The notes beneath the pieces were generated by a model. That model searched no databases, was not told the DNA's origin, and saw nothing but the letters and a program-made list of their open reading frames with translations. DNA of 32,200 bases, taken from sequence record SRR9188677_212; one strand, 5' to 3'. The position numbers and the translations under genes are program-made. This document shows positions 30,646-32,200 of the stretch, in pieces (position 1 is the first letter of the stretch; each line of letters starts with the position of its first letter).

Positions 30646-30689
30646 TGAAATCCTTTGAAAACACATCGTTGAGCTTTCAAAGGATTTCA
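30646..30689. terminator. Bidirectional terminator-like inverted repeat
   Basis: TGAAATCCTTTGAAA-N14-TTTCAAAGGATTTCA perfect 15-bp stem between convergent genes, 3 nt from the ATPase stop codon. Confidence 0.75.
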
Positions 30690-30692
30690 TTT

Positions 30693-31991
30693 TTAAGCTA
30701 ATGGAAATTCTAATCTTCCTGCCCAATAAATTGGTATGAAGTTTAATTTCCCTTGAACGCCAAATGGTGCATTTGAAAAAATAATCGCTTGAGCAATATG
30801 AGGATAATGCTCTAACAAATAATGTAAACTTTTTAATGACCCACTTTTTCCAGATTTCACTTCTATTGGTATAATTTGTCCTTCTCTTACCACAACAAAA
30901 TCAACCTCTGCACTACTTCCTGGGCTGGTTCTTGCCCAATAAGTTAATTCTTCTTTTTGCGAAGCAATAAGTTGTTGTGCTACAAATTGTTCCGCCAACA
31001 TTCCATTGAAAGCGGCGGTAAGACTCTTTTTTAAGTAAATGTCCAGAAAAGACAGTTTACTTTTTCTTAACAGCAAACCAATATCAAGATGAAATAATTT
31101 GAATTGTTTTCCTGAAGGAGAAAGTGGTAAGCCCGAAATCGATACATTCTGAACTGCATTCAACAATCTGGCTGTTCTTAATACTTCCACACCTTTTTTA
31201 ACAGTGGGACTTGAAAAACGTTCTGATAAATGGGTATAAATAATTTGATTGCTAATCAATAAGGCACTTTTTTCTAAAATATCGTTTAGTGCATCTCCAT
31301 CAACTGTGGGTTTATACTTTTTAAAATCTTGTTCATAGGAATACAACAAATTATCTTGAATTTCCTGTACTTCTTTAAAGTTTTGATTGCTGACAAAACT
31401 TTGTACACACTCAGGCATTCCACCTACGATAAAGTAATTGTTGACTTCTTCATTCAGTATCGTTGTTACAACTTCTGGTAAAACTGTAGGCTTTTCATTT
31501 AAAATATTGGCAACTGCATCCTTTTTTCTAGCCAATAAAAACTCATAAAATGTCATAGGATGAAGATTCATAATATCTACTCGACCAACAGGAAAAGGTT
31601 GGTTTCTAAACTCAAAGTCTAATAATGACCCTGCGGCAATAAGATGTAACTCTTTTTTATCTTCAAAAAAATATCTCAAACTGCCCAAAGCATCGGCACA
31701 GGCTTGAATTTCATCAAAGAAAAGTAAATCATTGGCTACATCAATCTTGATATTTAAAGCAAATTCAAGTTCTAGGAGAATCCTGTTTACATCAAAATTG
31801 GTTTTAAAGATGATATGTAAGTCTTTTCTTTTCTCAAAATTGATAGTGATTACTTTCTTGTCAAAATATTCTTCCCCGAATTTTTGAACTAGCCAAGATT
31901 TACCCACTTGTCTCGCTCCGTTTAGCACAAGTGGTTTTCTTGTTGGCTTTATTTTCCAAGCCGCTAACTCATTTATTTTTTCTCTGAACAT
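30693..31991 (-). CDS. AAA_14 ATPase with C-terminal DUF4143 (PD-(D/E)XK nuclease-like) domain
   Basis: Start moved to ATG 31991. RKPLVLNGARQVGKS (Walker A), LLFFDEIQ (Walker B), IAAGSLL, FPVGRV, HPMTFYEFL, YFIVGGMPE, KLFHLDIGLL, LAEQFVAQQL, YW...AEVDFVV....IPIEVKSG. Confidence 0.94.
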   Translation of the reverse strand: MFREKINELAAWKIKPTRKPLVLNGARQVGKSWLVQKFGEEYFDKKVITINFEKRKDLHIIFKTNFDVNRILLELEFALNIKIDVANDLLFFDEIQACADALGSLRYFFEDKKELHLIAAGSLLDFEFRNQPFPVGRVDIMNLHPMTFYEFLLARKKDAVANILNEKPTVLPEVVTTILNEEVNNYFIVGGMPECVQSFVSNQNFKEVQEIQDNLLYSYEQDFKKYKPTVDGDALNDILEKSALLISNQIIYTHLSERFSSPTVKKGVEVLRTARLLNAVQNVSISGLPLSPSGKQFKLFHLDIGLLLRKSKLSFLDIYLKKSLTAAFNGMLAEQFVAQQLIASQKEELTYWARTSPGSSAEVDFVVVREGQIIPIEVKSGKSGSLKSLHYLLEHYPHIAQAIIFSNAPFGVQGKLNFIPIYWAGRLEFPLA

Positions 31992-32027
31992 AAAATATAC
32001 TATTTTGTCAATGCTAAATAATAGGAA

Positions 32028-32035
32028 CAAATATA
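32028..32035 (-). promoter_or_regulatory. Bacteroidota -7 element (TATATTTG) for the AAA_14/DUF4143 gene
   Basis: Exact TAnnTTTG on the minus strand, 36 nt upstream of ATG 31991. Its -33 region falls inside the inverted repeat. Confidence 0.55.
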
Positions 32036-32051
32036 AAGACAAAACAGTTAA

Positions 32052-32112
32052 ATTTAATATTATGGTTATTATTTTAAATAATTAATTTAAAATAATAACC
32101 ATAATATTAAAT
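32052..32112. repeat. Perfect 28-bp inverted repeat with 5-nt spacer; each arm resembles a dif/Xer site
   Basis: ATTTAATATTATGGTTATTATTTTAAAT-AATTA-ATTTAAAATAATAACCATAATATTAAAT. Checked base by base; pairing stops exactly at 28 bp on both sides. Confidence 0.92.
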
Positions 32113-32200
32113 GCCTTTGTAAATATCATCATTCGAATGAAGTTCTTTCATTCTTGTCTTAGTTCAATGAAAAGTAAAAATTGAAGTACTAATTTTGAAG

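Follow-up and report, generated by a model that had tools for sequence, protein, structure and literature searches.

An inverted pair of repeat units, probably an operator-like array, at the promoter of an AAA_14/DUF4143 ATPase-nuclease gene in Arcicella

The gene, the palindrome and the promoter

We analysed a stretch of 32,200 nucleotides from record SRR9188677_212 (below, the window), near the end of which a long palindrome adjoins an AAA_14/DUF4143 ATPase-nuclease gene. The gene lies on the minus strand at positions 30693–31991 and encodes 432 amino acids. Its open reading frame was listed as 30693–32042; homologues begin at the ATG at 31991, which was taken as the start. The product matched the Pfam families AAA_14 (1.7e-25) and DUF4143 (1.3e-23) as well as the PADLOC profile of the candidate defence family PDC-S01, the latter over its full length (8e-128, residues 1–427). 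Walker A and B motifs (GxxGK and DE) and a D...EVK motif were invariant or nearly so in 23 aligned sequences. Judged by the full-length profile match and the intact ATPase and PD-(D/E)XK motifs, the gene qualifies as a member of the PDC-S01 (AAA_14 + DUF4143) family.

A passage in PMC12988326 describes PDC-S01 as an ATPase fused to a PD-(D/E)XK domain and ranks it as the fourth most common defence candidate across prokaryotes, most PDCs still awaiting validation. An excerpt of PMC3424549 places DUF4143/COG1373 among the PD-(D/E)XK families of unknown function. The closest named records of our protein came from Arcicella rosea and A. lustrica, both 100% identical at the amino acid level. Distant homologues were found on plasmids (59 records, all below 60% identity), and a search of viral contigs returned no relatives.

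A search of PDB sequences with the protein gave no match. In a structure model built on 23 sequences (pLDDT 82.8), the predicted fold comprises an AAA+ core with its lid, a helix-helix-beta-hairpin segment at residues ~232–301 that is winged-helix-like and would lie between the AAA+ and nuclease parts, and a C-terminal alpha/beta domain. The best fold matches were the archaeal AAA+ ATPases 2fna and 2qen, followed by Orc1/Cdc6 proteins on origin DNA (2qby, 2v1u) and then by STAND proteins. According to this model, the protein could be able to bind DNA.

Upstream of the gene, two arms of 28 nt each (32052–32079 and 32085–32112) are 100% complementary and separated by the 5-nt loop AATTA (32080–32084). 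This bears out the perfect inverted repeat reported in a preliminary description of the locus, and direct reading likewise agrees with the 11-6-11 parse given there for each arm (ATTTAATATTA / TGGTTA / TTATTTTAAAT), including an internal dyad of 9/11. On the minus strand, the distal arm (32085–32112) reads ATTTAATATTATGGTTATTATTTTAAAT and has the orientation usual in the family relative to the gene. The promoter-proximal arm (32052–32079) is the same unit inverted, and the two lie 33 bp apart, centre to centre. The palindrome is far beyond chance: the longest other perfect inverted repeat in the window (loop of at most 10 nt) has 12-nt arms, and maximal arms of 8–12 nt were obtained when the window was simulated 30 times with a first-order Markov model. 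Its predicted folding is equally strong, with -22.7 kcal/mol as single-stranded DNA (z = -9.15) and -28.9 kcal/mol as RNA (z of about -9); in both cases 0 of 200 shuffles equalled it. An intrinsic terminator, with its G+C-rich stem and T run, was considered and ruled out; the stem has 2 G-C pairs in 28 and no T tract, and no terminator-like site was called within 31800–32200. An Rfam search of the corresponding locus in the nearest genome (G001) gave only a chance microRNA match (E = 0.31).

Between the palindrome and the gene, direct reading reveals TATATTTG at 32028–32035 on the minus strand, a likely -7 box of the ATPase promoter. The box is separated by 16 nt from the palindrome and lies 36 nt before the ATG, and it fits what we take to be the Bacteroidota -7 consensus, TAnnTTTG. 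Given this distance from the box, the palindrome would abut or overlap the presumed -33 region. In the Arcicella clade, a box of this type follows the palindrome after 5–16 nt, in exact form at 5 of 8 loci and as a near-match at the other 3.

A module of 1.4 kb and its repeat units in relatives

Repeats, promoter and one gene evidently make up a module of 1.4 kb that occurs in different contexts. Between contexts, homology is confined to the stretch that the stop codon (about 30693) and the outer palindrome end (32105–32112) delimit. These limits hold when the window is compared with five other contexts (77–79% identity) and also for two module copies within a single genome, G011 (86%). Many pairs from the wider family have equal limits, for example L072 and L073 (-142 to +1282, 87%). 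Since homology stops at the outer arm and at the stop codon, the palindrome is the terminal element of the unit. No copy of the repeat unit was found at the 3′ boundary at the stop codon, and, with up to 2–3 mismatches allowed, the genomes yielded no further copies. In the 25 genomes of the genus, single units with up to 2 mismatches were, this locus excepted, no commoner than a reversed control, and for this reason we reject a dispersed repeat of the REP or MITE type. Distribution of the module within the genus is patchy.

Flanking features lie outside these limits. A hairpin with a 14-bp stem (GAAATCCTTTGAAA ... TTTCAAAGGATTTC, 30646–30689) stands between the convergent PAS and ATPase genes as a likely terminator and does not belong to the module common to other contexts. 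On the other side, the first half-copy of a 101-bp tandem repeat begins at 32151 and runs past the window end at 32200; it belongs to an isochorismatase-family gene and not to the module. The repeat, which sits upstream of that gene, continues in L003 (1095–1549), with 4.5 copies and 93% matches in the nearest genome, and unit matches precede the same gene in G011 and G020. Joints and loose ends of run contigs confirm the tandem repeat without fixing its copy number. It had no Rfam match, and Tandem Repeats Finder called no array in L090 or L091. The isochorismatase proteins of G001 and G020 are identical at 227 of 229 positions, the neighbouring DNA being about 83% identical.

Copies of the palindrome were sought by comparing positions 31900–32200 of the window with 41 relatives, of which 16 matched, 13 of them among the 25 same-genus genomes. 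Inverted pairs with variations were present at loci of 8 of these 25 genomes and in 2 metagenome contigs. The palindrome of the nearest genome differs in its loop and by two changes in each arm, both of which are compensated. Contigs from three coded runs of three studies bridge the whole palindrome; the contig of a further run, X3, ends at 32019, short of the palindrome, and is uninformative either way. The palindrome is thus carried by independent assemblies, run contigs and metagenome contigs, which disposes of the assembly fold-back artefact that the preliminary description had considered.

The loop is AATTA in the window, whereas the contigs of three runs and the metagenome contig L093 have TAATT, its exact reverse complement, and so the loop has been flipped; both forms are known from assemblies only. 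The sources with the flipped loop also share a T>C change at 32112. The flip suggests inversion or exchange between the arms.

The state of the palindrome was compared between the window and eight gene-linked loci. Five of the nine have perfect arms of at least 27 nt (the window, L041, L044, L045 and L048). The others are imperfect, with 25 nt and 2 mismatches in L043, 20 nt and 2 mismatches in L047, 18 nt in L042 and 12 nt in L046; intact genes adjoin the decayed palindromes of L042, L047 and L046. At L044 and L035 (contig 32 of G011), a perfect 28-bp palindrome stands beside an ATPase gene broken by an in-frame TAG. About 400 bp downstream of this gene there is a 37%-identical paralogue, so that two genes of the family lie there in tandem.

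Two genomes, G007 and G020, carry a solo palindrome 3′ of the syntenic PAS-domain gene, between convergent genes and without the ATPase gene. Both are 99% complete, and neither contains an ATPase homologue at E <= 1e-5. Only the left arm of the 30646–30689 terminator hairpin is kept at the junction, so that a deleted gene is a better explanation than an empty target. In G007 the solo arms differ from those of the window at 1 of 56 positions, whereas the loop and flanks do so at 11 of 34 (Fisher p = 6e-5), which suggests either that the palindrome is maintained without the protein or that the deletion is very recent. The solo palindrome of G020 is decaying. Beyond the palindrome there is a SASA-family esterase gene in G007 and a glucuronyl-esterase-like gene in G020, while the lineage of the window has the 101-bp repeat and the isochorismatase-family gene, which together occur on other contigs in G011 and G020. 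The neighbours therefore differ beyond the palindrome, and synteny as well as homology breaks on its outer side, as the preliminary description had predicted for a module boundary at the hairpin.

The unit is arranged differently in sister clades. Homologues with 52–65% amino acid identity have 2–6 direct copies upstream, all in the orientation of the gene and spaced by 33 bp (32 bp in two loci). Their hosts are Emticicia, Runella, Fluviicola, Flavobacterium, Leadbetterella, Saprospiraceae, Sphingobacteriales and further Arcicella bins. The core of the unit is TTATGGTATTTATTTTAAA (57 units, 20 loci), with clade variants such as ...ATTCTAAA and ACCTGTATATTCTAAA, and the Arcicella arms carry TATGGTTATTATTTTAAA, which is the family core with two changes. 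When the 200 nt upstream of the gene were matched against themselves, the best lag was 32–34 or double that in 25 of 26 loci, with a score of at least 19/21 in 21 of the 25 periodic loci and a weaker one of 15–16/21 in four. In a control region, -500 to -300, the period was found in 0 of 32 loci. No unit was seen in the 106 nt of upstream sequence of L064. In many homologous loci, the end of the last unit passes into a box of the form TAAATTTG or TATATTTG. The comparison of upstream regions that the preliminary description had proposed for AAA_14/DUF4143 homologues thus revealed the core as direct repeats on the promoter in 25 of 26 loci, that is, a unit at helical-phase spacing over the promoter of the linked gene, as in arrays of the iteron or operator type. 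An arm and the loop add up to 28 + 5 = 33, and therefore the palindrome corresponds to two units at the period of the family, the proximal one being inverted.

In more distant homologues from Segatella and Prevotella (31–38% identity; L077–L089), another palindrome, AAATGTGTAAACTTACACATTT, is conserved ~26 nt before the likely ATG and 46–48 nt upstream of the start of the protein match. Clade-specific upstream repeats may therefore be general in the family.

On a quick protein tree, the seven classes of site need 7 changes, the minimum being 6; shuffled classes needed 19.1 on average, and 0 of 200 shuffles were as low. The variant of the site tracks the protein clade and not the host family: one class spans several host families, and Arcicella hosts two classes in separate clades. 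As site and gene are linked, however, this co-variation shows co-inheritance and not recognition.

Covariation within the palindrome was studied in a set of 11 Arcicella-type copies. In these, pairing extends to 92.5% of cells, and both sides have changed in 7 of 28 pairs (20 cells). For the percentage paired, the number of doubly changed cells, the pair types and the covariation score, 0 of 500 shuffles came as high, and the count of doubly changed pairs was reached in 11 of 500; slid controls were 35–49% paired. The core of the arms is invariant, and the outer 9–10 nt change in concert. Because the flipped loop suggests exchange between arms, such concerted change needs no selection for the fold.

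Resemblance to dif sites

The preliminary description read each arm as a dif-like site, and the palindrome as a possible Xer substrate or scar. A dif-like pattern search of five related genomes (G001, G014, G007, G011 and G020; L036–L040) returned ATGTTACATAA-TTTACA-TTATGTTAAAT as a single-copy, intergenic sequence in all five, and we regard it as a candidate host dif. Its left arm varies, and its centre and right arm are invariant in 5/5 genomes. The flanks are similar in four; in G011 they differ on both sides, and the contig ends 171 bases beyond.

The arm of the window agrees with this candidate at 19 of 28 positions: 7 of 11 on the left, 2 of 6 in the centre and 10 of 11 on the right, where the 11-mer is one base off TTATGTTAAAT. 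A score of at least 19 was reached by 4 of 64,006 other 28-mers of the window, which scales to several hundred per 6-Mb genome, and by one among 458 28-mers with at most 3 G+C. By these counts the likeness of the arm to dif is above average, not site-defining. The internal dyad of 9/11 is a property of the arm in the window. ATAA-N6-TTAT around the centre occurs in 5 of 11 Arcicella-type arms, where only the inner ATAA/TTAT is symmetric, and the core of the 57 sister-clade units is asymmetric.

Two related kinds of site were tried as candidates and rejected. A CTX-type attP(+) hairpin is forked, imperfect and located on a single-stranded DNA phage; here the stem is perfect, a search of viral contigs gave no relatives, and the neighbouring genes, which encode glycoside hydrolases, a PAS protein, esterases and an isochorismatase-family protein, are not of phage type. 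Integron attC came into consideration as the arm ends of one relative resemble attC core motifs. Such sites are imperfect palindromes with extrahelical bases; they follow promoterless cassettes on the 3′ side and form arrays next to an integrase. The present stem is perfect, each locus has only one, and it lies on the 5′ side of a gene that has a promoter box of its own; attC was therefore dropped.

Further dif-like sites, ATAATTAT(GA/AG/AC)TTATGTTAA(A/G)T, were observed in at least two places per genome in G001, G007, G014 and G020. By analogy with the single-stranded DNA prophages of Flavobacterium, they might mark Xer-integrating elements.

Interpretation of the repeat array

Taken together, these observations are best accommodated by the operator with several sites over the ATPase promoter that the preliminary description had offered as its alternative. 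We propose, with a probability of roughly 0.55, that the palindrome is an operator-like array of sites, probably bound by the module's own ATPase, a protein of predicted Orc/Cdc6-like fold with a winged helix. It would represent the Arcicella-clade form of a cis element of the module, with each arm as one repeat unit, head to head; sister clades have 2–6 head-to-tail copies with the same period, the last merging into the -7 box. The units are most likely binding sites of a sequence-specific DNA-binding protein, for which the product of the module is the best candidate because the module encodes no other protein. Binding so near the promoter would turn the array into an autoregulatory operator and perhaps also into a platform on which the ATPase assembles. 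The perfect symmetry would be kept most simply by exchange between the arms, as the flipped loop suggests, and Xer recombination would be unneeded.

Several observations weigh against this reading. The co-variation of site and protein clade is expected from linkage alone, and the predicted winged-helix residues vary little between site classes, with clade-wide differences only. Palindromes and genes do not always go together: the solo palindromes of G007 and G020 lack an ATPase homologue, yet the arms in G007 are conserved; the gene at L044 is broken beside a perfect palindrome; decayed palindromes adjoin intact genes at L042, L047 and L046; and L064 is without a unit in its 106 nt. In addition, the outer 9–10 nt are paired while their sequence is unconserved, which a purely structural role would fit too.

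The units might instead be duplicated promoter segments, each made of a -33-like TTTA, a spacer and the start of a -7 box, and serve no dedicated regulator; arrays would then offer extra RNA-polymerase sites or UP-like elements, and the Arcicella palindrome would be an inverted duplication of such a segment. The proximal unit does end in the -7 box in many loci, and a weak TttA occurs 5–8 nt upstream of the core, ~20 nt before the TAAA of the unit, as the spacing between -33 and -7 elements requires. Promoter spacers are normally not conserved, however, and here the spacer part, ATGGTATTTATT, is the best conserved of all, in hosts from several families. Upstream units also lack the TTTG half of the box, and Arcicella, whose proximal unit is inverted, uses a separate box, so this origin seems unlikely to us. 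Slightly less likely is a structural element, that is, a cruciform or an RNA or single-stranded DNA hairpin that acts as an insulator or terminator, or as a fragile or recombinogenic spot setting the boundary of the module. The strong predicted folding, the compensatory changes in the outer stem, the loop flip as a trace of interacting arms, the solo palindromes between convergent genes (with the conserved copy in G007) and the break in homology and synteny at the outer end would all agree with it. The direct repeats of sister clades, on the other hand, cannot fold, yet they have the same place and period, and it is the core sequence that is conserved and not pairing alone. A stem with 2 G-C pairs, no T tract and no terminator-like site called speaks against termination, and at several loci decayed stems stand beside intact genes.

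The array could also mark one end of a selfish cassette of 1.4 kb and be recognised by its own ATPase-nuclease, or by a host enzyme, for excision, insertion or homing. Precise boundaries at the outer repeat and the stop codon recur in many contexts, the module is patchy in the genus with two copies in G011, its distant homologues reside on plasmids, and the nuclease domain keeps a conserved catalytic motif. Nevertheless, we consider mobility of this kind very unlikely: the other end showed no repeat or site, target duplications were not seen, the module has no recombinase or transposase, no relatives were found in viral contigs, and the solo palindromes of G007 and G020, with half of a terminator, resemble gene deletions and not empty targets. 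The least probable of the readings weighed here is that XerC/D or another tyrosine recombinase would act on each arm as a 28-bp site of the dif type, the palindrome being the substrate or scar of a recombinase-free mobile module. It draws on the right 11-mer, which agrees with the candidate dif arm at 10 of 11 positions where only 1 other 11-mer in 2 x 32 kb is within one mismatch, on the ATAA-N6-TTAT in 5 of 11 arms, on the dif-like combination of a variable left and a conserved right part, on the loop in both orientations and on the module boundary at the palindrome; dif-flanked prophages are also reported, in passages of PMC9719478 and PMC3091885, from Flavobacterium and Bacteroidales. Like dif, pdif and CTX-type attP sites, the arms are 28 bp long, paired in inversion and placed at a module boundary, with an AT-rich right arm one base from the candidate dif. 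The centre, however, matches at 2 of 6 positions and the whole arm no better than 4 of 64,006 other 28-mers of the window. No second site flanks the other module end, as pdif flanking would have it, and no further copies of the unit turned up in the genomes with up to 2–3 mismatches. The stem is perfect and not forked, and neither recombinase nor single-stranded DNA phage genes lie nearby. In sister clades the unit has an asymmetric core and stands in 2–6 direct copies at 33 bp on the promoter. The exact 28-bp boundary that had been put forward as evidence for dif is explained instead by the 33-bp period (28 + 5), and the loop flip has simpler explanations. To our knowledge, moreover, two sites 5 bp apart cannot synapse as duplexes.

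The operator-like array has partial counterparts among known systems. With the iterons and inverted-repeat operators of plasmid Rep proteins it shares a unit that occurs as direct repeats at whole helical turns, or as an inverted pair over a promoter, next to the gene of the presumed binding protein. The present locus, however, shows no replicon, origin or DNA-unwinding element, its protein fuses AAA+, winged-helix and PD-(D/E)XK parts and is not a Rep protein, and the direct and inverted forms belong to different clades and do not occur together in one element. Archaeal Orc1/Cdc6 proteins and their ORB repeats also combine AAA+ with a winged helix and have asymmetric repeated sites of ~20–30 bp, direct or inverted, beside the gene. 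The TM-scores to 2qby and 2v1u are nonetheless low (0.28–0.31, 14% identity), our protein has an additional nuclease domain, and the module is a bacterial single-gene defence candidate with no origin function indicated. Defence regulators of the BrxR/CapW type, whose inverted repeats lie upstream of the operon, resemble it in the palindromic site at a defence-type promoter and the winged-helix reader; in the present case the effector itself would contain the reader as one of its domains, with no separate regulator, and the usual layout in the family is a direct array with a 33-bp period. The flipped loop has its likeness in plastid genomes, where loop inversions at hairpin-forming inverted repeats are described. 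Here the 5-nt loop is reverse-complemented and the arms are unchanged, but it concerns a bacterial chromosome and is known from assemblies, not from reads of one culture. We found no description of such an array in the literature on DUF4143, COG1373 and PDC-S01, on which supplements may also bear.

A more far-reaching version of the operator-like reading is tentative and, as a whole, unlikely. The array might work as a loading platform similar to that of Orc1 on ORB repeats, on which the AAA+ nuclease would oligomerise, at repeats three helical turns apart or at the head-to-head pair, silencing its promoter and storing inactive nuclease until infection. Such an array would end a self-contained defence cassette of 1.4 kb, mobile among Bacteroidota.

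The locus illustrates how easily an AT-rich 28-mer resembles dif and yields, as a by-product, a candidate dif site for Arcicella. For the family itself, the conserved array of repeats accompanying one large subfamily in Bacteroidota offers a concrete handle on PDC-S01. From it follow a predicted operator, a likely DNA-binding specificity and a minimal unit of 1.4 kb to clone.
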